From IMG/VR virus record IMGVR_UViG_2595698902_000001, positions 64,001 through 128,000 of that record: a stretch of DNA of 64,000 nt; one strand, given 5' to 3'. This DNA comes from a virus (Duplodnaviria > Caudoviricetes). The position numbers were made by a program, and so were the translations under genes. Below are positions 13,477 to 36,897 of the stretch, piece after piece (position 1 is the first letter of the stretch; each line of letters begins with the position of its first letter). The notes beneath the pieces were generated by a model. It was not told the origin of the DNA. It made no database searches and saw nothing but the letters and a program-made list of their open reading frames with translations.

Positions 13477-14340
13477 TTAAATTACGAATTGTTTTAATTC
13501 AGCGTTCCACAAGTGTTTGAATTCATCACGAATAACAAACACCATCTTGCCACGCGGCAGGCCGGTTGTGTCCTTTGCTTCGGGGCTATGGAACGCATCG
13601 CTGTACAACTCACATCCAATTACCGTTCCCAGTTTGGCCTGAGATAGGATATCGCTTTTAGTAATCGGGTCCAGCATGGTTGCAAACAGATCAGAACCTA
13701 GAATGCTTGACCATGCGTCCGCATGAACCAAAACGTATTTGGATTTGCAGGCAAAACCCATCACGTATGCAGGCTCGGTTTCAATAAGTTCTACGTCAAG
13801 CTGTACGCCGTGAGTCATGGCTTCGGGCAACCGTTTAAAGTATTCCGAATTCGCTATTTCTTCCTGAACTGGGGTTGTCTCAGGAACGTCGTGCTTAGCC
13901 GCATGGTGCGGAACAAAAATCACTTTGCCTTGCGTTTCAGGCGAATGATCTTTCAGGTGCGGCGGCAGAAAGGCATCTGTGTAAACGCGACAATTGGCCA
14001 GCGTGCCTACGCTGCCATCCAGCACTAAATCGTAACGGGTGATCGGATCAAGCAAATAGGCCCAGTGATTCATGCTTGCGATGCTCGCCCACGCACTATT
14101 ATGGATGAGAACATAAGCAGCTTCTGCAAGATAAGGAAGCGCTTTATCGGGGTTGTCGAAAACGTTTTCGTCTACAATCTCGCCGTGCTCCAAAGCCTCT
14201 TGCAGCCTTACGAAATACTCACAGCCTGCCTGCTGTTCATCATCCGTCGTGTATTGCTTCGTCGGATGTTTTGCGGCAGTGGCCTCAAGCAGTTGCACAA
14301 TTTTTTCACGCAATTCTTCGTTACAAGGATGCTCGCTCAT
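13477..14340 (-). CDS. protein of two tandem repeats resembling the major capsid protein A-domain
   Basis: internal duplication: YVLIHNSAW..LDPITRYDL..GSVGTLANCRVYTDAF versus YVLVHADAW..LDPITKSDI..AKLGTVIGCELYSDAF. Confidence 0.6.
   Translation of the reverse strand: MSEHPCNEELREKIVQLLEATAAKHPTKQYTTDDEQQAGCEYFVRLQEALEHGEIVDENVFDNPDKALPYLAEAAYVLIHNSAWASIASMNHWAYLLDPITRYDLVLDGSVGTLANCRVYTDAFLPPHLKDHSPETQGKVIFVPHHAAKHDVPETTPVQEEIANSEYFKRLPEAMTHGVQLDVELIETEPAYVMGFACKSKYVLVHADAWSSILGSDLFATMLDPITKSDILSQAKLGTVIGCELYSDAFHSPEAKDTTGLPRGKMVFVIRDEFKHLWNAELKQFVI
13478..13485 (-). promoter_or_regulatory. putative late-promoter motif GTAATTTA
   Basis: similar motifs at 18720, 20168, 38485 and 38519 upstream of putative late genes. 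Confidence 0.4.
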
Positions 14341-14367
14341 TTATTAAAACCCCATGTCATTTTAGTT

Positions 14368-15582
14368 TTAGAAGAAATTGCGGAAGAAACCGCCAGTAGA
14401 GCCACGGCCCGGATATCCCGGCAAACGCGTCATTGGTGTATTGGAAACACCCAATACGCCGAACGCTCGGCTGGAATCAATGAAGCCTCCGCCTGCGCCA
14501 CCATCGCCACCCAAAATGCCAGCACGACCCAGCAGTTTTTTGTATGGCTTTACCTGCGATTCAATTTGCGCATCGATACGACCCAGTGCGCTTTCGAGTG
14601 CAGGCGTGCGGTCTACGTTTAAGCTAACCGTTTGACCGCCGAAATCAAATGCTAACGAACCCTCTGCCAAGTTCTGCGAACCCAGCGCGTAAATTGCGGA
14701 ACAGGTCAACCAGCAATCAAGCAAAGCACCCTGCATATTCGTGCCGGTGAAATTCGTGATATTTGGTTGCAGACTGTTGAAGAAACTCAAGCCACGGCTC
14801 AAGTATTCCATGAGGTCGGATTGCGTGTATTCCAATTCAGGAATGATATTCGCAACTCGCGCCCGGTTAATGTAATCCTCAAGCTGGCGCGCAGCTGTAA
14901 GGATTTGCGGAGTAATCATCCACACTTTGTAGGTCAGCGTGGTTTTCGCCAGCTTGCGCGCAGGCGTATGATCAACCAGCAAAGTCAGCGGGAACATTTG
15001 CGCTTTACCTATCACGGTCGGCATATCAATAACGGTGCGCTTTGCTTGCGCTTCCACCTTGATTTGCGGATCGGTAACATCCCAATCGTTAAAGATCGTT
15101 TTGTTGTTGTAGAAAAGCGAAACGGTAAGGGAATCTCCCTCTTTTCCCGGCTTGGCTTTAATCCCATTTTTGAAGTCTGCGGGAGTCGCGGCAACAGGCG
15201 GTTTGTATTTGATCGGCACGGTCAATTGCATACGGGTATCACGCCCGCACAAAACAACCAGATCAGAGTCCCGCCCTAATGTCGCCGGTTCAACTGTGAT
15301 TTTTGTTCGCGCCTGATGGTGCCCATCCTGTCCTTGGAAAGTCCAGCGCGCAACTAAATCAACAGAGTCCCGCAAATCCATGTTGGGGATTGGCAAATCT
15401 GCCATCCATACGCCCGGCTGCGTGGCGTGGTTTTTGGCGTAGACCTCGGCAATCACGGATTTATCAACGTCAAACAATCGTACTAACGGCGCGGGGCTAT
15501 CCTCTGCCGGTAATACAGGATCGTCAAAATCGTCAAAGAATTCTTCTGTGATTGTGCATGTAGTGCCTTCGTAAACACTCAT
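14368..15582 (-). CDS. putative virion neck/head-completion protein
   Basis: 404 aa; C-terminal AFDFGGQTVSLNVDRT resembles T4 gp13-type adaptor proteins; structural-gene context. Confidence 0.45.
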   Translation of the reverse strand: MSVYEGTTCTITEEFFDDFDDPVLPAEDSPAPLVRLFDVDKSVIAEVYAKNHATQPGVWMADLPIPNMDLRDSVDLVARWTFQGQDGHHQARTKITVEPATLGRDSDLVVLCGRDTRMQLTVPIKYKPPVAATPADFKNGIKAKPGKEGDSLTVSLFYNNKTIFNDWDVTDPQIKVEAQAKRTVIDMPTVIGKAQMFPLTLLVDHTPARKLAKTTLTYKVWMITPQILTAARQLEDYINRARVANIIPELEYTQSDLMEYLSRGLSFFNSLQPNITNFTGTNMQGALLDCWLTCSAIYALGSQNLAEGSLAFDFGGQTVSLNVDRTPALESALGRIDAQIESQVKPYKKLLGRAGILGGDGGAGGGFIDSSRAFGVLGVSNTPMTRLPGYPGRGSTGGFFRNFF

Positions 15583-16481
15583 TAGTCAATCACCCCTTGC
15601 GCCAACTTATTCGTCAGCGTTTCGATATCATGCAAAGCGGAATCATCCAGCGGCAATAGGCTCACCAATCCAGTTTCATCCGGCCCCACTTGGTTTTGCA
15701 CGTAACGCAACAGGAATTGGCGGATATTATCCTTTGCCTCTTCCTCATACTTTTCGTAGTATTTGCTACGGCGCCGCATGGGCAGATTCGGTGCAATGTA
15801 GCGGACATAGTATTCAGTGAATTTCGGTGTCCATTCTACCTGCAACAAATCCGGCATTCGTTTCCAGAAATCCAGAACGTATTTCCAGTCGGGCATTGCG
15901 GTGTAAAACATTGCCCGAGGGATGTTCTGCCGTAGAAACTTGGTTGCCGTTAAATCTACGCCACCACTGAATTCTCGCATGGAACGAATCACGGCTTTTG
16001 TGTAGCCGCCAGCGATATCAAAAAGATAACGCTGGTCGCGTTCCATCATTTGCTGCATACGCGCTCTGGTCAGCACAACCATCGGAATGGAAATGCTAAT
16101 GAATTCGTCCGATTGTACGTCGGTCGGTCCCCAAATTGCGGTGTACCCGCGCAGCCATGCGACATGCGCAGCTTTTGCAGCTTCGTTACGCTGAGTCCGG
16201 GCAAACGTGAAAACTAGACCAGTACGGCGCACATTCGCGGGCGGCAAATCAACTAGGCCGACGCTAGTGTTTGTGTACTGGCTCCAAACGTTCACTAGGG
16301 TAAACGTCGTTTTCGTCAAGAATGCTAACGGAGTTTTTCGCAATTGTTCCTCAAGGTAATCGAGGACCATTTTGATATCGATCAGGTAACGATCAGTGTT
16401 GTAAGTGGTGATGTAGCGGTCGCCACCGTAGGGCCATGCCGAAAGACGGAAATCTAACGGCATGGGAATGTAGATTTTCAC
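15582..16481 (-). CDS. hypothetical protein
   Basis: 299-aa coupled ORF. Confidence 0.8.
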   Translation of the reverse strand: MKIYIPMPLDFRLSAWPYGGDRYITTYNTDRYLIDIKMVLDYLEEQLRKTPLAFLTKTTFTLVNVWSQYTNTSVGLVDLPPANVRRTGLVFTFARTQRNEAAKAAHVAWLRGYTAIWGPTDVQSDEFISISIPMVVLTRARMQQMMERDQRYLFDIAGGYTKAVIRSMREFSGGVDLTATKFLRQNIPRAMFYTAMPDWKYVLDFWKRMPDLLQVEWTPKFTEYYVRYIAPNLPMRRRSKYYEKYEEEAKDNIRQFLLRYVQNQVGPDETGLVSLLPLDDSALHDIETLTNKLAQGVID

Positions 16482-17683
16482 TTCAACACAAGGCTGTAGG
16501 AGTGCATGTTGCCGTCGATAGAACGCAGCGAACGTGCATAACCAGATTTAACCAGCTTGGCGATATTCGGGAATCGATCAAACGCACGCAGAATCTGCGC
16601 CTGAATTTCGCGATCACCTTCGGGGAATTCCAGCAGCACTTCGTTATTTTCAACGGTAATGCCGGTAATGCCTTCGATAGCACCGACGCGGGCCTGCACT
16701 TCGGTAGCGTCAAGATTCAAATCAGCTTTAACGCTAAACGTTACGACTTCGTGCAGCGCCACTTCGCGCTCTACGCGGTTGATCAGTTTGTTTGCGATAT
16801 CGGCGGTATCTTTACCAGCAACTGGGCGGCCAATTTCGTATTTGTTCGGCAGCACAATACGGTCGTGAACATTCACGAAAGTAGTGAGGTTGAATTTGTC
16901 ATCAGCCGGAGCCAGACGCGCAGTAACCACAACTACCAACGCTTTGTGGAAGCCGTTGGTCATGTCGCGCCAGTGAGTGATATCGATGTTGAAAACGAAA
17001 TCAGTAACGCCGTCTTTGGTGCCGATGTTGACGAAATAGCCAACGGTGTCGGCATCGTCCAGCTCTTGCTGCGCGTCGGTTACGTCTTCACCTGCTTCTT
17101 TGCGGGCATCGATTTCTTTTTGCGCAGCTTCGATACGGGCACTTTCGATTTCTTCAAAATGCTTTTGCACACGGAAGAAAAGGTCATTAACTGCTGGCGG
17201 GGTATTACCCTTCGACAGTTCGGTCATGCCGTTAATGGCTTCCATGTACAGATCAACCATTGCGCTATGACGTTCGGTCATTGGTACAATTTCAGCGCGC
17301 ATACGTTCGTTCTCGGTTTTCGAGCACGCTTCGATAATCGCTTCAATCTGATCAATTGCATCGCGCATTTCCAGCGCGTCGAGGTTTTTCTGTAGCTGGC
17401 GTGGACCGGGCAAATCCAGTTTATCGACAACCAGCGAATGACCAGAACGACCACCAATTTTCTTTGGTCTGCCGCCTACGTCATCGCTGCCGCCACGAAC
17501 TTCGATAACGCTTACGCCCGAGGCAGTAGCGAGGTGACGGCCACGGAATACTTTACCGAACAAAGTACGCAGCAGACTGGTAAACTTGGAAATCAGTTTG
17601 CTGTAGCGGCCTTCGTTCTTTTTGTAGTATTTCAGCGCCTGCTCTGGCGTCATCCGTCGGATATAGCTGTAGTCTTTTTTCAT
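16478..17683 (-). CDS. hypothetical (putative virion) protein
   Basis: 401-aa coupled ORF. Confidence 0.8.
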   Translation of the reverse strand: MKKDYSYIRRMTPEQALKYYKKNEGRYSKLISKFTSLLRTLFGKVFRGRHLATASGVSVIEVRGGSDDVGGRPKKIGGRSGHSLVVDKLDLPGPRQLQKNLDALEMRDAIDQIEAIIEACSKTENERMRAEIVPMTERHSAMVDLYMEAINGMTELSKGNTPPAVNDLFFRVQKHFEEIESARIEAAQKEIDARKEAGEDVTDAQQELDDADTVGYFVNIGTKDGVTDFVFNIDITHWRDMTNGFHKALVVVVTARLAPADDKFNLTTFVNVHDRIVLPNKYEIGRPVAGKDTADIANKLINRVEREVALHEVVTFSVKADLNLDATEVQARVGAIEGITGITVENNEVLLEFPEGDREIQAQILRAFDRFPNIAKLVKSGYARSLRSIDGNMHSYSLVLK

Positions 17684-17686
17684 TCT

Positions 17687-18685
17687 TTAAGAATCCATGA
17701 TTGTGTTGAGTTTATCTTTCTCAGTCTTGCCGACGTTGAGCAGTTTTGTCAGCTTGTTAAGAGAGCGTGCATCATAGATTTTTCGTTTACCTACGATGAA
17801 CGAAATCATCTTGTTGTTACCGTACTGGGATACGCGGTGGATGATATCCGTGTTCGGCAGATTCACGGCCCGGCGCAGGTACGGCAAAACCCGCTGCAAA
17901 AACTTGTTGATATCGTCCGGTTGAACAAACGATTTCAGCACAACGTTTAAGCGGTCTTCGGTGACTTCGATGTTCTTAACCAGCTTAGACGCCAACAGCT
18001 TATCGTCTTTCGGTTCGGGCGTGCCGATATACTCGAAATCCGACAGGTTATTGGTTAGATACAGTTGAACATCCTTCGCAGTATCCACGCGTGATTCGTC
18101 GCTGGAAACATACGGAGAATCTGGAACGGAAATGCGATATTCCCCACCGAGCAAAGTGAGTTTAACGGTAATGGGACCACTAACGAATCCGTTAGCGTCG
18201 GCAATACCGCCGTCCGTGCGGAAACAAATCATTTGATAGTCAGGCAAACGGACGTGCAATTGCGTGGTGTGGCTAATCTTCGATAGCAGCTTGTAAACAG
18301 GCTCTGCCAGATAGCTCAAGTGCTTGTCCATTCGAGTGGAACAAACACCATCAATCAGATTCAAAAGGCTCTTTTGGAAATCGTGAATGTTGGACTGCAT
18401 AACGCCAATCATTTGGAAACAGCGGTCGCGTTTGGAATCGCTGAATTCCTGCACAATGGATCGAGCACAACGCAGTTCAAGCAAAGAATCAACGCAAAAC
18501 GTAAGCGCTTCAACACCATCCGACACTTTCAGCTGGGATAGTTTCTTTTGGTTGAATTTGGAAACCAAAACGCTAGTGGTCATGTTAATGCGGTTTAATA
18601 CAGCGACAACCTCATTGGCGTTTCGGGCGTTTTTTAGATCAATGACGTTCTTTGAGTCATCAATATACTTTGATTGTATTTGCAA
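17687..18685 (-). CDS. hypothetical protein
   Basis: 332-aa ORF downstream of a GTAATTTTA motif. Confidence 0.75.
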   Translation of the reverse strand: MQIQSKYIDDSKNVIDLKNARNANEVVAVLNRINMTTSVLVSKFNQKKLSQLKVSDGVEALTFCVDSLLELRCARSIVQEFSDSKRDRCFQMIGVMQSNIHDFQKSLLNLIDGVCSTRMDKHLSYLAEPVYKLLSKISHTTQLHVRLPDYQMICFRTDGGIADANGFVSGPITVKLTLLGGEYRISVPDSPYVSSDESRVDTAKDVQLYLTNNLSDFEYIGTPEPKDDKLLASKLVKNIEVTEDRLNVVLKSFVQPDDINKFLQRVLPYLRRAVNLPNTDIIHRVSQYGNNKMISFIVGKRKIYDARSLNKLTKLLNVGKTEKDKLNTIMDS

Positions 18686-18740
18686 TGCTCGAACACCTAA
18701 GAATATGGTGGGTATATCGTAAAATTACCGTCCAGATAGC

Positions 18741-18777
18741 AAAAAACCCGCCTTTCCTAATGGATTGGCGGGTTTTC
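18741..18777 (-). terminator. Rho-independent terminator (possibly bidirectional)
   Basis: AAAAAACCCGCC...GGCGGGTTTT. Confidence 0.8.
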
Positions 18778-18803
18778 TGTATTACCTTAACTCAACCTAG
18801 AAA

Positions 18804-20093
18804 TCAGGAGAAGCTAAGTTTCTTCGGCATAGCGCCGCTTTGTTTCTTCACTGCGCCACCGCTGGCCTTGGCAGCTGGTTTAGCAGCGGCGGCTGGTTTA
18901 GCGGCAGGAGTTTTCTTGCTTGGGGTTTTCTTGTCAGCTTTAGCTGGTTTTGCGGCGGGTTTAGCTGCCGGGGTTTTCTTCGGACGACCCGGAGATTTTT
19001 TAGCTGGCTTTTCAGCTGCGGCTGGAGCGGCTGCGGCTGGGGTTTTCTTTGGACGACCCGGAGCCTTCTTCGGGGTGCCGTCTTTTTTCACGCCATGCGG
19101 AGCTGCCGGAGCGGCTGCGGCTGGGGTTTTCTTTGGACGACCCGGCTTTTTCTTTTCAGGCGCTGGAGCTGCTGGAGCTGCGGCGGCTGGAGTCTTTTTC
19201 GGACGGCCCGGTTTTTTCTTTTCTGGAGCGGCGGCTACTGGAGCGGCAGCGGGAGTCTTTTTCGGACGACCCGGTTTGCGTTTTTCAGGAGCGGCTGCGG
19301 CTGGGGTTTCAGCCGGTTTTACTTTTGGCTTACGGCCCGGAGTTTTAGCCGGGGTGCCGTCTTTTTTCAGCTTTAGACCCGAGGTTGCTGGGGCTGCGGC
19401 TGGAGCAGCGGCTGGAGTCTTTTTAGGACGACCCGGAGATTTCTTCTGAGCACCACCAGCGGCTGGCTTCGGATCAGTATTTACCAGACGTTTGCCTTTC
19501 GAGCTGATTGGCTGCTTCTGGAAGTTGCTGATGAAATCTTTCAGGCGGAACGCACCTTTCTTCTTGCTCGCCTTTTTGATTTTATCAACCACTTTCGAGT
19601 GGGCCTTGGTGGACTTCATACGCTCGGCTGCCAGAGCAGAACGCTCTTGTGCGTAACGCTGCTTTTCAGCAGTGCGCAGTTGAGCACGCTTGGCCGGGGT
19701 GACTTTGAGGTCACGGATTTTTTGCAGAGCTTTTTTGTGCTTGCTTTGTACCTGACCGCTCTTTTTACGCAGCGCTTCACGCACTTGACGCTGAGCATCA
19801 CGGGCGGATTTCAGCTGGCCGGCAGCGTGAGTACCGGCGTGGCGGTGCTTACGGCGACGAACATAGGCAGCTTTAGCTTTTTTGGCTTCGGCTTCGGTCG
19901 CACCGTGGCGCATGGCACGCAGGAAAACTTGGTGGGCCAAGTGAGCCAGTTTGTCCTCATGGGACATTTTCTGGTATTTCTCTTTGGCCTTTTTGTTGAT
20001 TTTGTGCTTATTCTTTTTGTAATAAGCTTTGTGTTTCTTGGCGTCCTTGACGACCTCGGCGCCCTTTTGCTTCTGTACAGCTTTAGTAGCCAT
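18804..20093 (-). CDS. histone H1-like/AT-hook-repeat basic DNA-binding protein
   Basis: very K/A/P-rich; six PGRPKKTP repeats plus one PGRKPK variant. Confidence 0.8.
   Translation of the reverse strand: MATKAVQKQKGAEVVKDAKKHKAYYKKNKHKINKKAKEKYQKMSHEDKLAHLAHQVFLRAMRHGATEAEAKKAKAAYVRRRKHRHAGTHAAGQLKSARDAQRQVREALRKKSGQVQSKHKKALQKIRDLKVTPAKRAQLRTAEKQRYAQERSALAAERMKSTKAHSKVVDKIKKASKKKGAFRLKDFISNFQKQPISSKGKRLVNTDPKPAAGGAQKKSPGRPKKTPAAAPAAAPATSGLKLKKDGTPAKTPGRKPKVKPAETPAAAAPEKRKPGRPKKTPAAAPVAAAPEKKKPGRPKKTPAAAAPAAPAPEKKKPGRPKKTPAAAAPAAPHGVKKDGTPKKAPGRPKKTPAAAAPAAAEKPAKKSPGRPKKTPAAKPAAKPAKADKKTPSKKTPAAKPAAAAKPAAKASGGAVKKQSGAMPKKLSFS
18968..19445 (-). repeat. coding tandem repeats (KKxPGRPKKTPAAA)
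   Basis: recurring GGACGACCCGG/GGACGGCCCGG units with ~60-90 bp periodicity. Confidence 0.85.
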
Positions 20094-20239
20094 CGGGATG
20101 TTCCTCGATTAAAGGTTTGTTTAGGTTGGCTTTAATCGTAGCGCCACGATGCTAACCAACTTAATCCTAAATTAGTATGTAAAAACAAATACGCTTTTGC
20201 GACCTAACCCGAGGAACCGCCCCAATAACTACCGTTTTA

Positions 20240-21295: not shown

Positions 21296-21326
21296 AAATC
21301 CTGCTCTAATTGTGCCGTCTTCTATC

Positions 21327-21337
21327 TATTTACAGTT
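21327..21337 (-). promoter_or_regulatory. AACTGTAAATA promoter motif
   Basis: 32 nt upstream of the sbcD ATG. Confidence 0.7.
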
Positions 21338-21767
21338 AGCCCGTACCGGCTATACCACGCTCTAGTTCGCGTGTGATCGTGGTCTTAAATACGATCTTTT
21401 CTAGAGGACGATCAGGCCTCCAGTCATACGAAACAATAACGCTGTGTTTTCTACCACGGCCAACCTTATTTGCTTTGCGGCGACCCCGCAGGATTACACG
21501 ATCAACCTGCTTACCGTCTTCGTCTAGCAATGCGACTTCGCAGCGGTTTTTTCTATCGCGAATTGTGTAGGATTCGACAAGGTGAGATTTGACGTTGAAA
21601 AAGTCTGGCGTTTTGTGGCGAGCCAATGCGCGCTCAAGTACCGCTTGGCACTCGTTCATCATTTGGGCGCGCTGCTGTTCGGGCGTTTGCTCTACATGCA
21701 GGGCCTCGTAAATACGGCGCTGGATTTCTTTGAGCAAACGCATTTGGTTTATTTCTTCGAGGCCCAT
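21336..21767 (-). CDS. hypothetical protein resembling the tail-sheath C-terminal domain
   Basis: MRLLKEIQRRI...RAQMMNECQAVL...WRPDRPLEKIVFKTTITR. Confidence 0.5.
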   Translation of the reverse strand: MGLEEINQMRLLKEIQRRIYEALHVEQTPEQQRAQMMNECQAVLERALARHKTPDFFNVKSHLVESYTIRDRKNRCEVALLDEDGKQVDRVILRGRRKANKVGRGRKHSVIVSYDWRPDRPLEKIVFKTTITRELERGIAGTG

Positions 21768-21776
21768 TGTTGTTCC

Positions 21777-22403
21777 TTAGCGGAGTTTGATCAGCTGGCC
21801 GGGGAAAATCAGGTCAGGATTTTTCAGATTGTTAATGCGCGCCAGTTCGCGCCAATCGGTGCCGGTGTACATGCCGATTTCGGACAACGTATCGCCCGCA
21901 CGGACGCGGAAATACCCAACGCGAATAGCAGCGATAAATTCCGAATAATTGTGAACGATGCTAAGGGCACTGCGATCCACACTATCCGGTACGTTGTCAA
22001 TCATGGCCTGTACAGCTAAAGGCAGGTTATCTGCAATTGCGTTGTCGCACAGGAATTCCGGCTCAGCGGGCTTCCACATTTTTGCGAACTTCAAAACGTT
22101 TGGCACGTTGTCCGATTCGACTGGCTCAACCACAAGGCAGGTGGCCGCGCCGTTGCAGATGGTATTTTCGTGGCCCGCCCAGCAAGTGAGCGTGTTACGA
22201 ATCTTTTCAAATTCGCGGTGATTCACTTTCAGTACGACTTTGCGGAACGAGCGGCGGTGCCAATCGTTGTACCACTCAAGCTGCTCATGAGAACGACCGG
22301 GCGAAGTGAAAAATTCGTGTGCATTCAGCATCGAATGGGCGACCAGCGTAGGCACCATGTAATCCGGCGCTTCGTCAATTACCGCAATGTACATTTTCTT
22401 CAT
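21777..22403 (-). CDS. PTH2-like (peptidyl-tRNA hydrolase fold) domain fused to a C-terminal LysM
   Basis: KMYIAV...VAH...W....FRKVVLKV...TCLVVEP; LysM VRAGDTLSEIG...LARINNLKNPDLIFPGQLIKL. Confidence 0.75.
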   Translation of the reverse strand: MKKMYIAVIDEAPDYMVPTLVAHSMLNAHEFFTSPGRSHEQLEWYNDWHRRSFRKVVLKVNHREFEKIRNTLTCWAGHENTICNGAATCLVVEPVESDNVPNVLKFAKMWKPAEPEFLCDNAIADNLPLAVQAMIDNVPDSVDRSALSIVHNYSEFIAAIRVGYFRVRAGDTLSEIGMYTGTDWRELARINNLKNPDLIFPGQLIKLR

Positions 22404-22410
22404 CGGAATC

Positions 22411-22911
22411 TCACAGATATTCGTCGAGTTTGGTAATGCCTGCGCGAGTGCAATATTCCATCAGCGTGCCAATGCAATATTCGTCAATGTGCCCGGCGCG
22501 AAGGTCGGCTAAATCTTCGTGCGTGATCATCAATTGCGTGCAGAGTGCTACGTCGTCTTTGCGCGATGCTTTGATCCAGCGGTTCAATGTACGCAGGATA
22601 CGGGCTTTAATGCGTAGCTCGTCACGCATACAGTCTTCGTCAATCAGCGAATCCCACACATCAGGAACTGGTTTTTGCGGTTCGCGGTAGGAATCGGTAA
22701 TCAGCGTCACGTCTTCGCTAAGCTGGGTGATTTTGCGCTCAGGCGTGTCCTCGACCACACGCGGATAGGTAACGGTATTTTTCGGACCTGTTTCAGACGG
22801 CACCACAATCGCGCCCATTCCGTGCAGTGTGATATCCACATTGAGATTATTATTCTCCACGTCTTCCGGCGTATTGTTGGTTTCGTCGCAAATGACTTCG
22901 TAGTTACTCAT
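22411..22911 (-). CDS. chimeric protein: sheath-like N-terminal motif plus XRE/HTH-like C-terminus
   Basis: YEVICDETNNTPEDVENNNLNVDI; C-terminal LMITHEDLADLRAGHIDEYCIGTL. Confidence 0.6.
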   Translation of the reverse strand: MSNYEVICDETNNTPEDVENNNLNVDITLHGMGAIVVPSETGPKNTVTYPRVVEDTPERKITQLSEDVTLITDSYREPQKPVPDVWDSLIDEDCMRDELRIKARILRTLNRWIKASRKDDVALCTQLMITHEDLADLRAGHIDEYCIGTLMEYCTRAGITKLDEYL

Positions 22912-28446: not shown

Positions 28447-28448
28447 TA

Positions 28449-29570: not shown

Positions 29571-29601
29571 GTCGAAGCTCTTTCGTTGTGGGTATACCTA
29601 C

Positions 29602-29612
29602 TATTTACAGTT
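29602..29612 (-). promoter_or_regulatory. AACTGTAAATA promoter motif
   Basis: 32 nt upstream of the clamp loader ATG. Confidence 0.7.
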
Positions 29613-29919: not shown

Positions 29920-29937
29920 GTCCCAGTACCTATTTCG

Positions 29938-31104
29938 TTATTCGGCTTTGGCCGCTTTGATAGTTTTTTCGAGAAGCTTTGTGCAAGACTTCGGAATTTG
30001 CTTGCCTTTGAGGTGCGCTACAAATACTTCGGCAAACATTTTCTGCACGGAGGTGGCAGCGACTTGGCCCAACACGGCAGTTACCGAACCAGTGTTAGAA
30101 GTTGCTGCCGAGGTCGGCCAGATATCACCGAGAACCTTGCTGTTTTGGTTCAGCAGAATGTTCACGTCTTCTGGCGACATTTTGTGAATTTTCTTGAGGT
30201 AGGCCAGCGCCTCTTTGAACAGCGCGGCTTCGTCTTCTTCAAGATCACGCTGGAATTCGCGCACGCTCATTTGCGAGGAAACCAGCGAAGTGAACAGCGC
30301 TTCCATGTCGGCTTTTTTCGCCTTGGAAACTTTGGTCAGGGAGTTGTAAAGTTCCAGCCATTCCGAACGCACTTTCTCAGGAACGTAACGGAACCAAATG
30401 GCAAGGCCCGTTTCGTGGAGAACGTAGGTTTGGTTTTCGATCTGATCCTCAAGGATGACCGGGTGGAGTTTTACCAAATCAATCGGCGAGCCAGTTTTGA
30501 AACTGACGTTGTAGGTGCCGGTGGCTTTGCCTTTTGGCGAATGCACTTCGACACGCGCAAACGGATAGACTTTACCGAGGCCAATTTCTTCGACTTTCGC
30601 TACGGCTTTCTTGATGCCGATGCGCAGCGCTTTGGCTTCCGCTTCGTTGATCTTGCGGTAGTCGTGAATCTGCCCGATTGGCGAATCGATTTCACCGTGA
30701 CGCGGATTAATGGAAACGCCGAAAGCAGAACCGGGCGACGGCTGCTTACCGAGGTTGGCAACCAGCGAATCCGCGTCATATTCCACGGTTACTGGTTCGT
30801 CCATTTCCATTGTGTCCTCGACGTAAGCGGTATTGCGCTTAGGCGAGTGAGCGAAACAGAGTTTGTTTTTCTTGCCGATGCGGACGATGATGAAATCGTC
30901 TTTTTCGACAGTGATCATTGTCTTGTTGGAGACTTTGACCTTTTTCTTTACTTCGGTCGGTTCAGCACTGCCAGACACGTCGATGCTCTGGTCTTTCATG
31001 CTTTTCTTCGACTTCTTTTCTTTCTTCGGTTGCAGGTCGAGTCCTTTGGACAGGGCTACGTCCTTAGACTTCTTTTTCTTCTTTTTCTTTAGATCATCAC
31101 TCAT
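29938..31104 (-). CDS. hypothetical protein with poly-Lys N-terminus and a degenerate zincin-like HETGL motif
   Basis: 388-aa ORF; YVLHETGLAIW. Confidence 0.75.
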   Translation of the reverse strand: MSDDLKKKKKKKSKDVALSKGLDLQPKKEKKSKKSMKDQSIDVSGSAEPTEVKKKVKVSNKTMITVEKDDFIIVRIGKKNKLCFAHSPKRNTAYVEDTMEMDEPVTVEYDADSLVANLGKQPSPGSAFGVSINPRHGEIDSPIGQIHDYRKINEAEAKALRIGIKKAVAKVEEIGLGKVYPFARVEVHSPKGKATGTYNVSFKTGSPIDLVKLHPVILEDQIENQTYVLHETGLAIWFRYVPEKVRSEWLELYNSLTKVSKAKKADMEALFTSLVSSQMSVREFQRDLEEDEAALFKEALAYLKKIHKMSPEDVNILLNQNSKVLGDIWPTSAATSNTGSVTAVLGQVAATSVQKMFAEVFVAHLKGKQIPKSCTKLLEKTIKAAKAE

Positions 31105-31429
31105 TTTTCAGTACCTCTATGTACGCTACTTCTCCCTCGTAAGGAATGCCTGTAGCGGCGTGAAAGAAACGGGAAAGCTTGCGGGAATTCGCGGTGTGCA
31201 GTTTGTGTGCATCGACATGCACGCGAGAGCCTGCAAGCTTCACATAATGAATTTGCGAGAATGGAATCTCACGCTCTTCGACAATCGTGCGGATACTGGC
31301 GAACTTTTCCTTTTGGAAATCGCCCATGTACCAACCGCCTGTGAACGTTGGCAGGCTGGTCGGTGCGGGCGAACCGAACGTGCAGCGCCACACTTTTACT
31401 TTACGAAAATTTACTCTGCGAGATTTCAT
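31097..31429 (-). CDS. hypothetical protein
   Basis: 110-aa ORF in the operon. Confidence 0.65.
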   Translation of the reverse strand: MKSRRVNFRKVKVWRCTFGSPAPTSLPTFTGGWYMGDFQKEKFASIRTIVEEREIPFSQIHYVKLAGSRVHVDAHKLHTANSRKLSRFFHAATGIPYEGEVAYIEVLKNE

Positions 31430-31453
31430 AGGTTTGCATCTTGCAATAGGGCG

Positions 31454-31711
31454 TCACGACGGACGGCTTAGGCCTGCCAAATAGACAGCTGGGTTAAACG
31501 ATTCGTCGGCTACCACTTTCAGTTCCAATTTCTGGACTTGGTAGTGGCAGTTGCCGTTACGAATTGCACTAAGAATGTCGTTGTACTTTTGCTCACTGAT
31601 GAATTCCCAATCGTCCCAGTCGGCTTCGATTTGTTCATCGGTGTGTGGGCCGCGACCGGCTGTGTCGTAGCGATACCAGCTCCGCTTTCGGTAAACGAAT
31701 TCTGTAGACAT
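31454..31711 (-). CDS. hypothetical protein (paralog of the N-terminus of the 31711-32220 protein)
   Basis: shared EQIEA.W..WE.ISEQKY...HYQ.Q.L...SFNPA.Y. Confidence 0.8.
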   Translation of the reverse strand: MSTEFVYRKRSWYRYDTAGRGPHTDEQIEADWDDWEFISEQKYNDILSAIRNGNCHYQVQKLELKVVADESFNPAVYLAGLSRPS

Positions 31712-32220
31712 TAGCGCGTCCGTTCGTGTTCTGGATTGTGGAACGTAAACGTGGTGTGCAGCACGTTGCCGATTTTCAGCGAACCGTAGGTGCCTTGGAA
31801 TTCCAGTGCAGCCGCGTATTCAATCTGCGCAATTCGTTCGTTTGCATTTGCGGCATACACATGGTTTCGCTCAGCAAGCAACCACGGCGTCCACTCTTTG
31901 CCGTCGAAGCAACGGAACAGCGAAATACGTTTCGTTTTTGCAGGTGTCGGGATGTTCTGCTTTGCCCGTTCGTGCTCGATGTATTTCGCCGGGTTAAACG
32001 ATTTGTCTTCTGCGACCACAACGTCAAGCGCCTGCGCCTGATAATGGCTCGGGCTAGGCCACGCAATGTATTCGCAGATTTCTTTGTACTTCTGCTCGCT
32101 GATGATTTCCCATTCGCCCCAGCCTGCTTCGATCTGCTCAGGCGTGATATCTTTGTGGCGTGAACCGTACCAGACGTTCACGTCCCAAGTGCGATAACGA
32201 TAAATCTTTTCGGTTGTCAT
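31711..32220 (-). CDS. hypothetical protein
   Basis: 169-aa ORF with a paralogous N-domain. Confidence 0.8.
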   Translation of the reverse strand: MTTEKIYRYRTWDVNVWYGSRHKDITPEQIEAGWGEWEIISEQKYKEICEYIAWPSPSHYQAQALDVVVAEDKSFNPAKYIEHERAKQNIPTPAKTKRISLFRCFDGKEWTPWLLAERNHVYAANANERIAQIEYAAALEFQGTYGSLKIGNVLHTTFTFHNPEHERTR

Positions 32221-32222
32221 GA

Positions 32223-32843
32223 TTATTCGCCGACCGTAACGTGACCAGCCAAGGCTGCAATTTGTTTGGTCATGAAACCGTTAACCAAACATTCGTTTTC
32301 AACGAGGCCCATATACTCCAGTTTGATATTTTCTTGGAACTGGAACTCGCCACCGGGCAGCATGGTTTCATTGAAACGTTTGAGGGTTTTTGCCCAAATA
32401 CAACCGTTGCCTCCGACGTAGAGGACCGTTACCGGGTAGTTTTCCCGTGCGTTCGGATTTGCGCGTTCGTTCGCATAACCCAAAACCAGATATCGATTGC
32501 CGTTAGTGTGATGGGTAAACGAAGCGCCGATGCCGGGCAGCATATGACTGGACGGCACGCCTTCAATAGCACGCGGACGGTTTACGATTTCGTATGCGCC
32601 ACCCAACTCAAACGAATGAACAATTTTGGTTTCGCCCGCATCGTTAACACCCACGATAACGGAATCATCGGCGGCGGTGATGTGATACAAACCAGAATCG
32701 CATTTAATGCTGTGCAGTCCGACAACACACGGCATGTATTTCAGCACGCCAGCTTCTACGCGCACATTGTACAGGCGCTGGCTTTGGTTAAGCGTCATTA
32801 CCTGATCAATCAGGTCGTTTACTTGCTCTTCGTTGTATCGCAT
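32223..32843 (-). CDS. hypothetical protein with a DUF1653-like C-terminal domain
   Basis: G..F.H..G..Y.VLG.AN...TVLY......IWAK.L..F. Confidence 0.6.
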   Translation of the reverse strand: MRYNEEQVNDLIDQVMTLNQSQRLYNVRVEAGVLKYMPCVVGLHSIKCDSGLYHITAADDSVIVGVNDAGETKIVHSFELGGAYEIVNRPRAIEGVPSSHMLPGIGASFTHHTNGNRYLVLGYANERANPNARENYPVTVLYVGGNGCIWAKTLKRFNETMLPGGEFQFQENIKLEYMGLVENECLVNGFMTKQIAALAGHVTVGE

Positions 32844-33469
32844 GGCGCACCTTTAATCATTAGTTTGTTTTGCAGTAGGAGGACAACGGCGTACCCGTGC
32901 GCGGCGATGATATGCGCTTTTGTGGATAAACAGGTGCCGTTGTATGCGTTGCTCAAAATGACGTATGGATCGAAATCCAATGGGAGGTCCGCTGCCTCAC
33001 AAATGCCCAGCAATTTTTCTACCAGCTCAGGCATTACCATAATCGGCAAAGGAACCGGGCCATTCTTTGGCGCTGCGTCCCGCATAACGATTCGACCGTG
33101 CGCGTCGGGGAATTGCACAACAATGCGATCCGCCAATACATGCACACGGGCCGTTTGCCACATATCAACCACGGTCGAAGTGTACGAAGCAAACGTTACA
33201 AACGAATCGAATTCGGCGCGGACAAAACTTAACAGCTCATAGCCGAGATTTACGTCGTCTAATTCAAGCTGCAAAGGTTTTGACCGCGTGCCGCTCGGGC
33301 GCCAATAGCCCTGTTTGGTTAGCGCGGTGTACGGGCGTTTCTCCCGAAAACCAACCGCGTATCCGTTGCCCGCGAAGTAATACAGGCTGTTGTCGTAAAG
33401 GCACATATTCGCGCCGAACGAACGGCACTGTTTTACAAAGGCAGAGTCAAGGATGCTAACCTCGATCAT
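32819..33469 (-). CDS. hypothetical protein
   Basis: 216-aa ORF with a promoter motif at 33499. Confidence 0.7.
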   Translation of the reverse strand: MIEVSILDSAFVKQCRSFGANMCLYDNSLYYFAGNGYAVGFREKRPYTALTKQGYWRPSGTRSKPLQLELDDVNLGYELLSFVRAEFDSFVTFASYTSTVVDMWQTARVHVLADRIVVQFPDAHGRIVMRDAAPKNGPVPLPIMVMPELVEKLLGICEAADLPLDFDPYVILSNAYNGTCLSTKAHIIAAHGYAVVLLLQNKLMIKGAPCDTTKSK

Positions 33470-33498
33470 GGTGAGTTTCCTACTACGTTGTTTCCTAA

Positions 33499-33509
33499 TA
33501 TTTACAGTA
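33499..33509 (-). promoter_or_regulatory. TACTGTAAATA promoter motif
   Basis: 30 nt upstream of ATG 33469; overlaps the upstream stop codon. Confidence 0.6.
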
Positions 33510-34890
33510 TTTCGCCCTGCATACGAATGGTTGGAATGCGCTTGAATTCAATTTCGTCGGGCTTTGATTTCTTTTTCTTCGGCGCTACCTTGGCTACCGG
33601 TTTCGCTTTCTGTTTGGCAGCAGCCTTTGCAGCTTCGTCGTCTTTCTTTTTCTGGCGGGCGGCGCGGCGCTCTTCTTTCTGGCGCTCTTCCTCAGCCTTT
33701 TTATTCAGACGTTTTTCCCGGCGTTCGTCACGCGCTTTGTTTTCTGCATCGACCACTTTACGGCGGGCGGCTTGCTCATTCGCTTTACGTTTATCCAGAT
33801 AGGCCTTGGCCTCGCTGGCGTCTTTGTTCCGTTTCTCTTCTTTTTCCATTGTTTTCAGGCGATCAATCGTTTCGTTGCGATAGCGCACGGTAAGTTTTGC
33901 TGCAACGTCCGTAGGTTCAGAATCAGCGGTAACGTTGGTGTGCTCAACCTGCATACGGCAATCGATTGTGAAAAACCGATCTTTTACTCGCGCGTTGCGG
34001 GTCTGTACCTGCGCCATAACCAGCATGTCGTAAAGGTGATCGATGCCGGTCGCCTGCTCGATCATGCCCTCGCGCCGCGTCATGTGTTTTTGCAAAGCAA
34101 TGGTGCGGGTTTTGCTCAGAATGTCGCGAACTGCTTCCACGCGATGGAAAGAGTATTTTTCAAACTGCGCAGCGCGGTCGCCTGCAATCATATTGGAATA
34201 CTGCGCCGGGAAACTGAATACTGCGCTTTCAAAATCTGTTTGGTTGGCGTAGTGCTTTTTACGCTGGATGGGACTCAGGCTCAGGTGGCTTTCGTAAATG
34301 TCGCGCTGGTATTTCCAACGCTTCGCCATGTTCGCATATTCCTTGCGCGCAAGGTTGAGCATGACCGAACCATAATGCAGGTTTTCAAAATGCTTGCCGT
34401 CGGTAGCCAACGTCAAAGCAATCTGGCCTTTGCTGCTGTAGGACGTGAACAGCACAGCAAACGGAACGGTCGGCGCTTTATACGAAATTTCTTGCCACTC
34501 ACGGGTAAAACAAGTGCCGTCAATCAGCACGCTTTCTGTTTTCCCGCTCCAATAGGTATCAGCGTAGATTTTGCGCAGGTACGCTTCCTGCTCGCGGAAA
34601 TCATCCATGCCCTGAATGTCCCACATTTCGATAATGCGCAGCGCAAACGCATTCATGTTGCTAAGCATTTTGCGGATGCTGGATTCTGTGCTGCCCCAGC
34701 TTTTCGGACAGCCTTTCGACAGGCGACGTTTTGCGTTGTATTCGGGATTGAATTCTAAGCCGGTCACGTCACGCGCAAGGCTATTGTGCATGAGGTGCGT
34801 ATAAATCATGGTGAACACGTTGTCGGTGTATGTTTTGCTAATGTGTTTTGCGTTGCCGCCTTGCGTGTAGCTAGGTACGTAAACTTGCAT
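33502..34890 (-). CDS. hypothetical protein with a basic coiled-coil C-terminus
   Basis: 462-aa ORF, GAGG RBS. Confidence 0.8.
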   Translation of the reverse strand: MQVYVPSYTQGGNAKHISKTYTDNVFTMIYTHLMHNSLARDVTGLEFNPEYNAKRRLSKGCPKSWGSTESSIRKMLSNMNAFALRIIEMWDIQGMDDFREQEAYLRKIYADTYWSGKTESVLIDGTCFTREWQEISYKAPTVPFAVLFTSYSSKGQIALTLATDGKHFENLHYGSVMLNLARKEYANMAKRWKYQRDIYESHLSLSPIQRKKHYANQTDFESAVFSFPAQYSNMIAGDRAAQFEKYSFHRVEAVRDILSKTRTIALQKHMTRREGMIEQATGIDHLYDMLVMAQVQTRNARVKDRFFTIDCRMQVEHTNVTADSEPTDVAAKLTVRYRNETIDRLKTMEKEEKRNKDASEAKAYLDKRKANEQAARRKVVDAENKARDERREKRLNKKAEEERQKEERRAARQKKKDDEAAKAAAKQKAKPVAKVAPKKKKSKPDEIEFKRIPTIRMQGEIL

Positions 34891-35638
34891 GGGTGTTTCC
34901 TCTGGTCAGTATTTCATTTATGTAATTCGAGTGGGCAAAGCTGGAGCACCCCGAAACCGAAAAGCGGCGCGGGGGAAAGGGGGCGGCGGAACTGGGGATA
35001 GGGGGCGCCTTTCGGCGCTATTATGCTAAGCCGCTCGGCGTGCATTATACGCCCTGAACCTTGTTATGGTTTGACCGTCCATTTATGGAACGCGCAAACA
35101 GAGCTATCCCTTTAATTCACTCCCCACCGGCCTGCCTCACGCCTTTTCATCCGATGTGGGTTTCGATGCTGAATGTGGGGGACGCTGGGTGGCTGGAATA
35201 GGGGTCGCTTCGCTCCCCTTTTCCGCTTCGCGGAATCCTATTCTTTTTCGCTTCGCTCAGCTCGCTAGCGCTCGCAGCGTCGCTGCGCTCCGCTACGTTG
35301 CTTTTGCAAGCTTCCAGCCGGTTCCTTATTCTGCATTTCTTTTTCAATCAACCTGTGTTCCTTGTGCTCCCTTGTGTGGGGGAATCTCTGCGCTTCCTGT
35401 GGTTCGTTCCTCACCCCGCATTGAACAATCATACCAACCATTGTTCCAATTGCTCCCTCAATACCAACGTCCCTATAGTCAGTATTTACAGATTTTAAAT
35501 CTACCCTAATCCAGCCTTAATCGGGGTCTATTAGGTTGGGTCCATTAGAATGCAACCCTAATGATTAGGCCCATTCATTCAAATGCGTATAATGCGGGCA
35601 ATAAAAAAGGGGACCGATTAAGGCCCCCTTTAGGTGGA
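34891..35638. other. long structured non-coding region; candidate replication origin or ncRNA locus
   Basis: G-run cluster, nested inverted repeats, CGCTTCGCTC repeats, CCTAAT repeats, flanking 11-bp inverted repeat. Confidence 0.5.
35603..35631 (-). terminator. Rho-independent terminator
   Basis: AAAAAAGGGGACC...GGCCCCCTTT just after stop 35639. Confidence 0.7.
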
Positions 35639-36307
35639 TCAATAGCTGGATGCTGATGCTGTTAGCGTGTCGTAAAGCTCAAGGATATTCGCATTAAAGT
35701 CGAATGCCTCGGTGCCTTGCTTGTTATTGCAGACAACGCAATTAGGCCAATCGTGTGTAGCGCAGCAATTGCTGGGTGGTAACGGGCATGGATCGGCGCC
35801 CATTAGCATACGCTCGCAAACCAGTTTAACCAGCTTGCAAATCTGATCAGAAGTAATGCCCGTAGTCTGGCAATCAGAATCTGCTGGGAAATTTTGAACA
35901 GGTACAGGTTCTCCCTGTGCAACCGCCGGTGCAACCTCCGTAACGGGCTGCAATTCGTTAATGGTTTCGCCATTTAAAGAAATGCGGATTTTCCGAGGTC
36001 CATAGGTTTGAATGCTAACGTCGGTCGCGCCGTCCCGCTGGAACGTCGTAACGTCTGCATACGAGCCTTCGCTGCTAGCCGTTGCTGTGTGTTGATGATC
36101 CAGCTTCCCTTTGATTTCGTGTTTAATGTGATCCCAAATCTGCGCGAATTTCTTGCTGCTTTTGTTGGCAATCGCATCAGCGAGTTTTTCGCCGTTGGAT
36201 TGGGAAAGCAGCGGCATAATCATGCGCAGCATTGCGGATCGTTTATTCTTGCCCGAGCGGTTGCGGGCCAGCGCAATCATGTTGGAGGCAATCTGTAATT
36301 CTTTCAT
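35639..36307 (-). CDS. hypothetical protein with a Cys-rich C-terminus
   Basis: 222-aa coupled ORF. Confidence 0.7.
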   Translation of the reverse strand: MKELQIASNMIALARNRSGKNKRSAMLRMIMPLLSQSNGEKLADAIANKSSKKFAQIWDHIKHEIKGKLDHQHTATASSEGSYADVTTFQRDGATDVSIQTYGPRKIRISLNGETINELQPVTEVAPAVAQGEPVPVQNFPADSDCQTTGITSDQICKLVKLVCERMLMGADPCPLPPSNCCATHDWPNCVVCNNKQGTEAFDFNANILELYDTLTASASSY

Positions 36308-36897
36308 TACTTGCCACCTTTGATTTTGTCGGCAATGCGGCGGTAGAACGAACGCTTTGGCCGGTGGATTTCACACGTCACCAATTCCAGATCATCGGTA
36401 CGGCCTACGGTTTTGATTTCAGAATGCACGAAATCTTTGTAGGTGCCGACTACGCTGCCTTCCGGGTCTTTTGCTGCGGCTGCGAACATATCAATAATCG
36501 CAATCAAATCTTCCTGCGTCGGTTGCCAATCATCGCTACCGATTTTCAGGTGCAGCATACGCTTGAGCGGACCGGGCAGATAACCGTTTTCAAATTCCGT
36601 CTGCGGGCTAAACGATTCGTAGCCGTTTTCGTAGCGAACGAAATAGCCGCCAGTGTGGACGAAATGATCCATGACGAATTCGTCTGAAACCACGACTTCC
36701 AGCAGGCCGGATACGTCGCGCAGTACGTATTCAGTTTTCTGTGCCGATGGGAACACGCTACCGAAACCGTCGCCGTGTGGAACCTGTACCATTTGCGGTG
36801 GCACAACTTCGCCATTTTTCATCTTGGGGCGAGCGGTAATGCTGAAAATCTGAAACGCTTCTACCTGCTTGTGGCACCGCCAGATAGGAAGTTGCAT
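36307..36897 (-). CDS. two-domain protein: GGY.V.Y..GY.S.SP..FE.GY domain plus a portal-like segment
   Basis: WRCHKQVEAFQI...GGYFVRYENGYESFSPQTEFENGY, then MLHLKIGSDDWQPTQEDL...DPEGSVVGT. Confidence 0.7.
   Translation of the reverse strand: MQLPIWRCHKQVEAFQIFSITARPKMKNGEVVPPQMVQVPHGDGFGSVFPSAQKTEYVLRDVSGLLEVVVSDEFVMDHFVHTGGYFVRYENGYESFSPQTEFENGYLPGPLKRMLHLKIGSDDWQPTQEDLIAIIDMFAAAAKDPEGSVVGTYKDFVHSEIKTVGRTDDLELVTCEIHRPKRSFYRRIADKIKGGK

Follow-up and report, generated by a model that had tools for sequence, protein, structure and literature searches.

Small accessory proteins of a jumbo phage with cores exapted from capsid, sheath and portal segments, and their possible role in counter-defence

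The stretch of phage DNA analysed here, in the following called the window, comprises 64,000 bp and represents positions 64001-128000 of one phage contig of 280,538 bp. It contains four small open reading frames (ORFs), referred to as P1 to P4, each of which carries a segment related to a virion protein of the same phage, namely to the major capsid protein (MCP) in P1, to the tail sheath in P2 and P3 and to the portal in P4. A sequence-only reading of the window had proposed exactly these assignments, and the four ORFs are indeed real at precisely the coordinates it gave, all on the minus strand and coding for 287, 143, 166 and 196 amino acids (aa), respectively. Four pieces from three different virion proteins thus fall within 23 kb of one genome and are placed 40-50 kb from their parent genes, all of which lie outside the window on the same contig. 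The features are listed below, with window positions for the small proteins and contig positions (G000:C1) for the parents.

13477..14340, minus strand: P1, 287 aa, tandem duplication of a unit of about 130 aa (unit 1, 13870-14253; unit 2, 13480-13869)
13951..14121, minus strand: capsid-like segment of P1 unit 1, residues 74-130, corresponding to about MCP 242-298 (BLASTP E 6e-10, 44% identity over 57 aa; MCP-family hidden Markov model (HMM), independent E-value (iE) 8.7e-13)
13528..13746, minus strand: capsid-like segment of P1 unit 2, residues 199-271, corresponding to about MCP 241-310 (hhalign, PHROG and BLASTP, the latter at E 1e-9)
21336..21767, minus strand: P2, 143 aa, diverged C-terminal part of the sheath (about 105 residues) with an inserted basic loop, GRRKAxKVGR (hhalign)
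22411..22911, minus strand: P3, 166 aa, sheath-motif head, linker and helix-turn-helix (HTH), fused here and present as two or three separate ORFs in relatives
22825..22908, minus strand: P3 residues 2-29, sheath C-terminal motif VICDETNNTPEDVENNNLNVDITL (BLASTP, hhalign)
22435..22626, minus strand: P3 residues 96-159, HTH (Pfam HTH_37, PF13744)
36307..36897, minus strand: P4, 196 aa, full-length member of phrog_11049 (PHROG E 2.4e-96)
36574..36897, minus strand: P4 N-domain, residues 1-108 (tblastn), also found as a stand-alone phage protein of 82-98 aa
36418..36567, minus strand: P4 residues 111-160, portal-like beta-alpha-beta segment, corresponding to about portal 286-335 (BLASTP, hhalign, PHROG)
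G000:C1:37456-38550, minus strand: MCP, 364 aa (phrog_2522, E 8e-119)
G000:C1:54424-56064, minus strand: sheath, 546 aa (phrog_23, E 6e-73)
G000:C1:145942-147924, plus strand: portal, 660 aa (phrog_16240, E 2e-295)

All three parents were confirmed as full-length members of their families. The MCP covers positions 2-317 of the 318 of phrog_2522, and its family matches the solved capsid protein 6wkk (E 4.6e-19); the sheath is a relative of T4 gp18 (PDB 9mkb, E 1.7e-29); the portal covers positions 1-636 of the phrog_16240 profile, and no solved relative of it was found by sequence. The phage moreover encodes a second full-length sheath paralogue (530 aa, G000:C1:33058-34650, minus strand) with 32% identity to the 546-aa sheath, both matching phrog_23, over residues 7-539 and 7-525. 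The four family HMMs of the small proteins were run against all 938 ORFs of at least 80 aa in the genome. Similarity to MCP, sheath or portal, without which the sequence-only reading would fall, was found by BLASTP, PHROG and hhalign; P1, P3 and P4 are each significantly, and in each case locally, similar to their own parent by every one of these methods, while P2 is the weakest of the four.

In P1, MCP residues 242-308 are matched by both repeats (BLASTP E 6e-10 and 1e-9, 44% identity). Comparison with an alignment of 24 MCPs by hhalign yields a probability of 99.3 (E 3.9e-20) over 70 columns, the PHROG major head protein phrog_2522 is matched at E 2.9e-14, and the P1 family HMM recovers both units with iE values of 9e-39 and 3.8e-37. 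According to hhalign, the MCP-like part comprises unit residues 42-114, whereas about 45 N-terminal residues have no MCP counterpart. The homology to the MCP suggests that the piece corresponds to the A-domain region of an HK97-type capsid protein. The label of a capsid A-domain given in the sequence-only reading is hence supported by sequence homology, whereas the P1 unit, when used in fold searches, shows no more than weak agreement with an HK97 capsid. The predicted structure of the unit is confident (predicted local distance difference test score, pLDDT, 90.7; predicted template modelling score 0.84). Foldseek returned no match in the PDB at E <= 0.001, the prophage capsid 3bqw being ranked second with a probability of 0.87 and E 0.12, and VIA-align found no match with Z >= 5 among 48,161 chains. 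About 22 of the best 50 VIA-align rows are capsid or encapsulin shells, the best capsid reaching Z 4.8 compared to Z 4.9 for a Pelota C-domain.

The P1 slot lies between a putative neck (head-to-tail joining) gene and a phrog_17573 gene. In Pseudomonas phage HRDY3 (313 kb), the named relative closest to the window phage, the slot is empty, with a 60-bp gap between flanking genes that are 71-81% identical. Three related contigs carry a single unit, and the duplicated form is present here and in one 97%-identical cluster. A homologue search with the whole of P1 yielded one protein among 1679 candidates. For close P1 relatives in three metagenome runs no indels are listed, and 10 of the 14 listed differences fall on third codon positions.

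Residues 1-29 of P3 match sheath residues 491-519 (BLASTP E 7e-7), the PHROG tail sheath is matched at E 7.8e-6, and hhalign against the sheath gives a probability of 98.6 (E 8e-16). The motif aligns on the T4 gp18 stretch VCDTTNNTPSVIDRNEF, which is nearly identical in the phage's own sheath; CDxTNNTP within it is invariant and lies in the C-terminal region of about 105 residues. The HTH of P3 scores 28.1 bits for HTH_37 (E 1.8e-6), above the Pfam gathering threshold of 27, and tblastn finds matches to HTH proteins of phiKZ-like phages. Syntenic ORFs of 61-190 aa with the motif at their head (63-69% identity) are present in HRDY3 and in two further genomes, G001 and G002, in each case followed by a separate HTH ORF of about 91-96 aa. 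Since motif and HTH reside on separate ORFs in these three genomes, P3 of the window is a lineage-specific fusion; across the four genomes the locus is split or fused differently. The P3-type ORFs of HRDY3 (L067 1492-2040) and G002 (L070 1501-2073) end in a G(Q/M)LGT..GV.I.T motif, for which a relation to MCP and P1 was considered and rejected as not significant (HMM E 0.13-7.5).

P2 is linked to the sheath only at the profile level. The P2 family, consisting of P2 and its four orthologues in HRDY3, L023, L024 and L025, aligns co-linearly with a 10-member sheath alignment (probability 96.5, E 7.5e-10, 101 columns), with P2 residues 2-141 placed on sheath residues 434-537; control comparisons with the MCP and portal families gave probabilities of 0.3 and 0.1, respectively. 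No match between P2 and the sheath was obtained by BLASTP, PHROG or tblastn. When the 938 genome ORFs were searched by HMMER, the second sheath paralogue came first among the non-self matches of P2, with its C-terminus and at E 0.05; the P2 profile aligns with the single sequence of this paralogue in the same register, with a probability of only 14. P2 is ranked as the weakest of the four because of this profile-level match and the low probability against the single paralogue. The inserted basic loop GRRKAxKVGR is absent from the sheath. The sequence-only reading had assigned the sheath C-terminal domain twice; for P2 this stands, at the profile level and for about 105 residues, whereas P3 carries a hairpin-sized motif of 28 residues and not the whole domain.

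In the gene between P2 and P3 (window 21777-22403, minus strand), a region resembling the peptidyl-tRNA hydrolase PTH2 (PF01981, E 2.7e-5, 24.8 bits, cutoff 23) is combined with a LysM domain at the C-terminus. The annotation of the HRDY3 orthologue as endolysin probably goes back to the LysM domain alone.

Residues 112-162 of P4 match portal residues 287-338 (BLASTP E 3e-9); hhalign against the portal gives a probability of 98.1 (E 1.1e-13) over 49 columns, and the PHROG portal is matched at E 6.4e-9. The protein begins with the N-domain (1-108), continues with the strand-helix-strand resembling the portal (111-160) and ends in a variable tail. Its predicted structure is poor (pLDDT 48.2). 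The predicted order of elements (strand 113-119, helix 128-142, strand 147-153) would fit the portal clip, and we put this forward as a guess. Full-length orthologues occur in HRDY3 (46% identity), at seven of the nine IMG/VR loci found and in three protein clusters, and the portal-like segment is kept in 8/8 extracted orthologous ORFs. In contrast to these, 15 of 16 phage records found by tblastn match P4 residues 1-106 only, and L014 and L015 contain the N-domain as a stand-alone ORF, a form in which it is widespread among phages. Homologue searches returned 3 proteins among 31 candidates for whole P4 and 3 among 11 for residues 1-110, the latter adding nothing. The HRDY3 orthologue XDJ15160.1 (L001 4001-4591, 196 aa) carries the public label 'portal protein', which looks like a misannotation since the similarity is local, extending over 49 residues, and the real HRDY3 portal is an ORF of about 670 aa elsewhere. 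In the portal itself, 4/4 related genomes show no difference in this segment over 76 residues, which makes the resemblance of each P4 orthologue to its own portal uninformative.

The P4 N-domain, together with residues 66-108 of P0008, weakly matches a PHROG annotated as MazG-like pyrophosphatase (E 4.6e-4). A Tad2-like/DUF2829 domain (PF11195) was considered and rejected, Pfam giving no match even at E <= 5. A structural match in the ESM Atlas (TM 0.66) concerns a part of a 233-aa cluster outside its Tad2-like domain, so that the link to Tad2 is at most a lead to a fusion partner. These observations hint that the N-domain may be a fusion partner of nucleotide- or signal-handling modules.

As the sequence-only reading had it, two of the ORFs are fused to unrelated domains, P3 to HTH_37 and P4 to its separate N-domain, and all four pieces are too short for the full architecture of their families. 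P1 matches positions 198-268 of the 318 of the MCP profile, with 70 of about 370 MCP columns aligned, and hence not the full-length fold; P2 and P3 hold about 105 and 28 residues of a 546-aa sheath; P4 covers positions 291-346 of the 643 of phrog_16240.

The same kinds of pieces are re-used in other combinations. A search of 1.84 billion representatives with the capsid piece gave 20 matches at E <= 0.001, comprising two full-length MCPs, 13 single-unit proteins (112-169 aa), three two-unit proteins, one unit with an unrelated extension and the metagenomic protein P0027, a fusion of a P4-type N-domain (phrog_11049, E 8.7e-17) with the capsid piece (phrog_2522, E 4.7e-5). When viral contigs were scanned for the sheath motif, 80 loci were kept. 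In 71 of them the motif is placed as in a sheath gene, at least 129 residues into the ORF and 17-49 residues from its stop; full-length sheath ORFs were seen in seven of these that were opened, and two further loci among the 71 (L089 and L090) hold a short ORF of 219 aa, which retains about 90 residues of the sheath C-terminus. At the other nine loci the motif lies within 40 residues of the ORF start. Four of the nine belong to relatives of the window phage, one is cut by a contig end, and four represent two ORF types in unrelated contigs, one of 63 aa among small genes and one of 100 aa just downstream of two large metabolic-type ORFs. In unrelated phage contigs, sheath-piece ORFs are thus found among small genes or beside large ORFs of metabolic or replication type, and no full sheath ORF was present within the fetched 3 kb on either side of the 63-, 100- and 219-aa ORFs.

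The pieces are not relics, since they are retained in syntenic relatives and show the highest conservation within proteins that evolve fast, and since the ratios of nonsynonymous to synonymous substitution rates (dN/dS) are about 0.2-0.4; they are selectively maintained, old and diverged, and have been recombined with other modules. For P4, dN/dS amounts to 0.18-0.24 over the whole gene and to 0.15-0.43 over the portal-like segment (five pairs with whole-gene dS < 1), and the N-domain shows a mean identity of 60.9% among orthologues. The least saturated P1 pair gives a dN/dS of about 0.4; the mean identity of the P1 capsid-like part is 51.9%, compared to 34.4% for the N-terminal part, and that of the P3 motif is 66.5%, compared to 23.8% for the rest of the protein (four orthologues). 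Retention in relatives and purifying selection speak against pieces that evolve neutrally or occur in one genome only. P1-P4 evolve much faster than their flanking genes. A tree built on the 70 residues common to both groups places a single branch (support 96/92) between 15 capsid-like proteins and 24 MCPs, with branch lengths of 0.3-1.7 for the small proteins as opposed to about 0.05 or less for the parents. This fits one old capture of the capsid piece followed by fast divergence rather than repeated copying or gene conversion, although 70 columns cannot prove it. The suggestion that the phage copied pieces of its own structural genes thus stands as far as derivation from MCP, sheath and portal is concerned, while recent copying does not agree with the single branch and the much faster evolution. 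In sum, each of the four genes codes for a small accessory protein with an exapted virion-protein segment as its core.

The window codes mostly for replication and repair functions. It includes a family-A DNA polymerase, a 2054-aa helicase, an HNH endonuclease, SbcCD and a clamp loader, and furthermore a topoisomerase II, exonucleases and a resolvase. HRDY3 has a counterpart for 35 of the 37 minus-strand window ORFs compared (a 43-kb syntenic stretch), and the MCP groups the window phage with PaBG, Yoloswag, Alexandra, AD1 and similar jumbo phages. In PaBG, structural and replication genes are interleaved, and its table of virion proteins includes the giant helicase-like protein of the P1-P4 block (PMC7412058). 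The window, too, has a putative structural gene, the 404-aa gene adjoining P1, annotated in several relatives as a head-to-tail joining protein. The description of P1-P4 as non-structural ORFs therefore applies insofar as they are small accessory ORFs, far from their parents and in a block dominated by replication and repair genes; for P1 it calls for caution in view of its annotated neighbour.

How might such proteins act? We propose that P1-P4 are mimics of subunit-association surfaces and candidate counter-defence proteins, a tentative reading to which we assign a probability of roughly 0.38. We infer that the parent subunits associate with one another through these pieces, for sheath and MCP from published descriptions, while for the portal this is a guess. 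The Avs sensors Avs7, Avs8 and Avs10 bind the MCP A-domain at its oligomerisation interface (penton/hexon), the sensors appear to target monomers, as models clash with the oligomerised forms, and the portal is a known Avs trigger (PMC13581612). The sheath C-terminal domain is the platform for an inter-subunit 'handshake' beta-sheet (bioRxiv 10.1101/2021.12.18.469577). Small proteins expressed from the replication-gene block would, as subunit-interface mimics, occupy whatever normally engages the association surface of the free monomer. They could act as decoys, a mimic binding an Avs-type host sensor without closing or oligomerising it, or as shields, a mimic capping a newly made virion monomer and thereby hiding it from the sensor before assembly. 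Given that Avs7, Avs8 and Avs10 bind the MCP interface, that the sensors appear to be directed at monomers and that the portal is a trigger, competition at these surfaces, be it on the sensor or on the nascent monomer, is the most economical reading. Several of the above findings support it. What the small proteins retain is the most strongly conserved portion of each parent, as seen from the 76 identical residues of the portal, the sheath motif shared down to T4 gp18 and MCP 241-310, which holds many invariant columns in the 24-member MCP alignment. The distribution is that of accessory genes, patchy and plastic, with a P1 slot that may be empty, single or duplicated and a P3 that may be split or fused. 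Each piece is homologous to the phage's own virion protein, and there is modular re-use in P0027, the 13 stand-alone capsid pieces and the sheath-piece ORFs.

Other points weigh against interface mimicry in counter-defence. For activation of the respective Avs, a 130-residue tape-measure segment and the polymerase core proved 'necessary and sufficient' (PMC13581612); conserved fragments can thus trigger sensors, and a decoy must therefore bind without activating. No tail-sheath sensor is known according to the accessible parts of the same paper, which name the sheath only as a possible future target. The segments of the small proteins are 40-44% identical to parents that are themselves nearly invariant, and because they have drifted this far, exact surface mimicry is not maintained. 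The fold of the P1 unit resembles HK97 capsids only weakly, the best capsid scoring below Pelota and Foldseek giving nothing at its threshold. That the pieces are interface elements at all is likewise our deduction, made for the portal in the face of a parent without solved relative and a P4 model with a pLDDT of 48. Finally, a structural role is possible for P1, since it adjoins the putative head-to-tail joining gene. Both the chaperone and the dominant-negative alternatives discussed below fit the data equally well as the decoy.

The main rival explanation is that P1-P4 serve the phage's own morphogenesis and not immunity, as assembly regulators or capping chaperones that bind free MCP, sheath and portal monomers and block aberrant self-assembly, such as polysheath, off-pathway capsomers or a wrong portal ring size, or set its timing. 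It draws on the same homology and conservation data as the mimicry of association surfaces in counter-defence. The sheath C-terminal domain docks the N- and C-terminal strands of neighbouring subunits (bioRxiv 10.1101/2021.12.18.469577), the unusual two-protein sheath of this clade may need extra control, P1 adjoins the putative neck gene, and P3-type ORFs always precede an HTH gene and could couple the level of free sheath to transcription. Assembly factors are, however, usually conserved and near their clients, whereas P1 is absent from HRDY3, with only the MCP found in G001 and G002, and P1-P4 evolve much faster than their flanking genes and lie 40-50 kb from their parents. On balance, we regard this explanation as unlikely, if serious.

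Still less likely, in our view, is re-use of the segments purely as folds, by which stable folding units were captured long ago and now serve functions unconnected with virions, in DNA binding or regulation for P3 and with some other ligand for P1 and P4, some of them perhaps decaying. In line with this, the capture of the capsid piece appears ancient and single, with large divergence from the parents, the P1 unit has added its N-terminal residues without MCP counterpart, P2 its basic loop, and the fold of the P1 unit is also like Pelota/eRF1 C-domains (Z 4.9). Yet four pieces of three virion proteins within 23 kb are not readily accounted for in this way, nor is the observation that the virion-like piece is the best-conserved part in each case. 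Moreover, polar loop motifs identical to the parents (LDPITK.D and CD.TNNTP) are kept and not only a hydrophobic core, and the P4 N-domain occurs fused to a portal piece as well as to a capsid piece.

It is improbable that P1-P4 are minor virion components which co-assemble at special sites such as the capsid vertex, the neck or the sheath end. P1 is flanked by the putative head-to-tail joining gene and by conserved genes without assigned function, and the PaBG precedent of interleaved genes and a helicase-like protein in the virion table (PMC7412058) would be compatible with such a role. However, most of the elements that a protein would need to fill a lattice position are missing from the 70 residues of an HK97 protein, the 28-residue motif and the 49 residues of portal, P1 is dispensable in close relatives, and in the accessible parts of the PaBG study 0/14 virion bands are described as such a fragment, its gp numbers not being mappable to these genes (PMC7412058). 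Equally improbable are weapons against competing phages, that is, dominant-negative mimics by which relatives or satellites infecting the same cell would be poisoned in the assembly of their capsid, sheath or portal: the accessory, fast-evolving character of P1-P4 is in keeping with them, and one mimic would affect many relatives since the targeted parent segments are conserved clade-wide, but by the same conservation a mimic would also poison the portal and MCP of the phage itself, whose segments are identical, and no immunity mechanism is evident.

Related principles are known from other systems. Satellite capsid homologues such as Ccm of SaPIbov5 are MCP relatives encoded outside the structural module which redirect capsid assembly of the helper via homotypic contacts; these proteins possess the complete HK97 fold and co-assemble, whereas the P1 unit is a 70-residue piece with an unrelated N-terminal part. 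Capping chaperones, as in donor-strand complementation of pili or in the FliS-flagellin pair, occupy a beta-sheet or association surface and keep the subunit monomeric, which is the capping mode proposed here, but they are not known to be homologous to their clients, and the genes for them are conserved and essential for assembly. The two-component sheath of PaBG ('Lupandier') belongs to the same clade and reflects the same raw process, duplication of a virion gene, the window phage having two full-length sheaths as well; its paralogues are, however, full-length and listed as virion proteins, whereas P2 and P3 keep about 105 and 28 residues in small accessory ORFs (PMC7412058). Avs recognition is directed at conserved cores of monomers (MCP A-domain interface, portal), the kind of segment retained by P1-P4, but it represents the host side of the conflict, and the accessible parts of that report mention no phage-encoded trigger fragment and do not count the sheath among known triggers (PMC13581612). 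The DNA mimic Ocr and the antitoxin mimic Gp145 of ICP1 follow the same logic, a defence protein being confronted with a small phage protein that resembles its natural partner (PMC13728456; 10.1101/2025.06.06.658234). Unlike these two, P1-P4 would imitate the phage's own virion protein, as true homologues of it.

In the accessible parts of the literature on phage decoys, Avs portal recognition, anti-Avs proteins, HRDY3, the PaBG genome and EVADES, a set of small proteins made from capsid, sheath and portal fragments was not found. The main text of the EVADES catalogue of 268 anti-defence proteins, as far as accessible, contains the word 'capsid' 0 times (10.1101/2025.06.06.658234), and a paper on anti-Avs proteins reports a ligase and an AMP-binding protein rather than mimics. 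Virion-gene duplication in this clade and mimic-type anti-defence proteins are thus already known, while the fragment-mimic set was not found described.

Some further observations concern other parts of the window and the ORF searches. In the intragenomic all-against-all searches the ORF set had an antisense ORF in place of the 546-aa sheath, and the resulting lists are incomplete; within this set, which lacks that sheath, family HMMs of the 37 minus-strand ORFs (331-38473) gave no further significant link to a virion protein besides tandem paralogues. Long open frames antisense to real genes occur at window 4734-10487 (plus strand), opposite the giant helicase, and at genome positions 53785-56055 (plus strand), opposite the 546-aa sheath. 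Two adjacent minus-strand ORFs of 85 and 169 aa (window 31454-31711 and 31711-32220) are paralogous over about 80 residues (phmmer 1.6e-17), and both match one HRDY3 gene region. A 260-aa ORF without PHROG family (window 43150-43932, plus strand) is weakly similar with its residues 91-168 to residues 285-357 of a 634-aa 'ATPase' (phrog_20988) adjoining the MCP gene (phmmer E 2.7e-4), which makes it a possible further case of a fragment derived from a larger phage protein. The 429-aa ORF at window 18804-20093 (minus strand) is much more variable than its neighbours, with a match in HRDY3 at residues 52-81 only and 47-50% identity in two other relatives (residues 1-346 and 1-223); at 18839-18908 within it, contigs from metagenome run X4 break off with loose ends.

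With respect to annotation, caution is warranted, as local matches lead pipelines to label ORFs of this type 'portal protein' or 'major head protein'. Beyond this, STAND sensors recognise conserved oligomerisation surfaces of virion monomers, to which P1-P4 may represent an answer of phages other than point mutation. P1-P4 may be the first examples of a modular and widespread class of counter-defence proteins, diverged homologues of the phage's own association surfaces that would be made ahead of the virion proteins and would either saturate the receptors, while leaving them inactive, or cap monomers, although we hold this to be rather doubtful. If such a class exists, the sheath-motif mini-proteins in unrelated phages would imply undiscovered sheath sensors. 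P1-P4 in any case provide concrete, clonable candidates to be paired with MCP and portal sensors, and the sheath pieces possible bait for sheath sensors. Should they instead be assembly regulators, they would represent a new route of chaperone evolution, in which capping modules are derived from the phage's own virion proteins.

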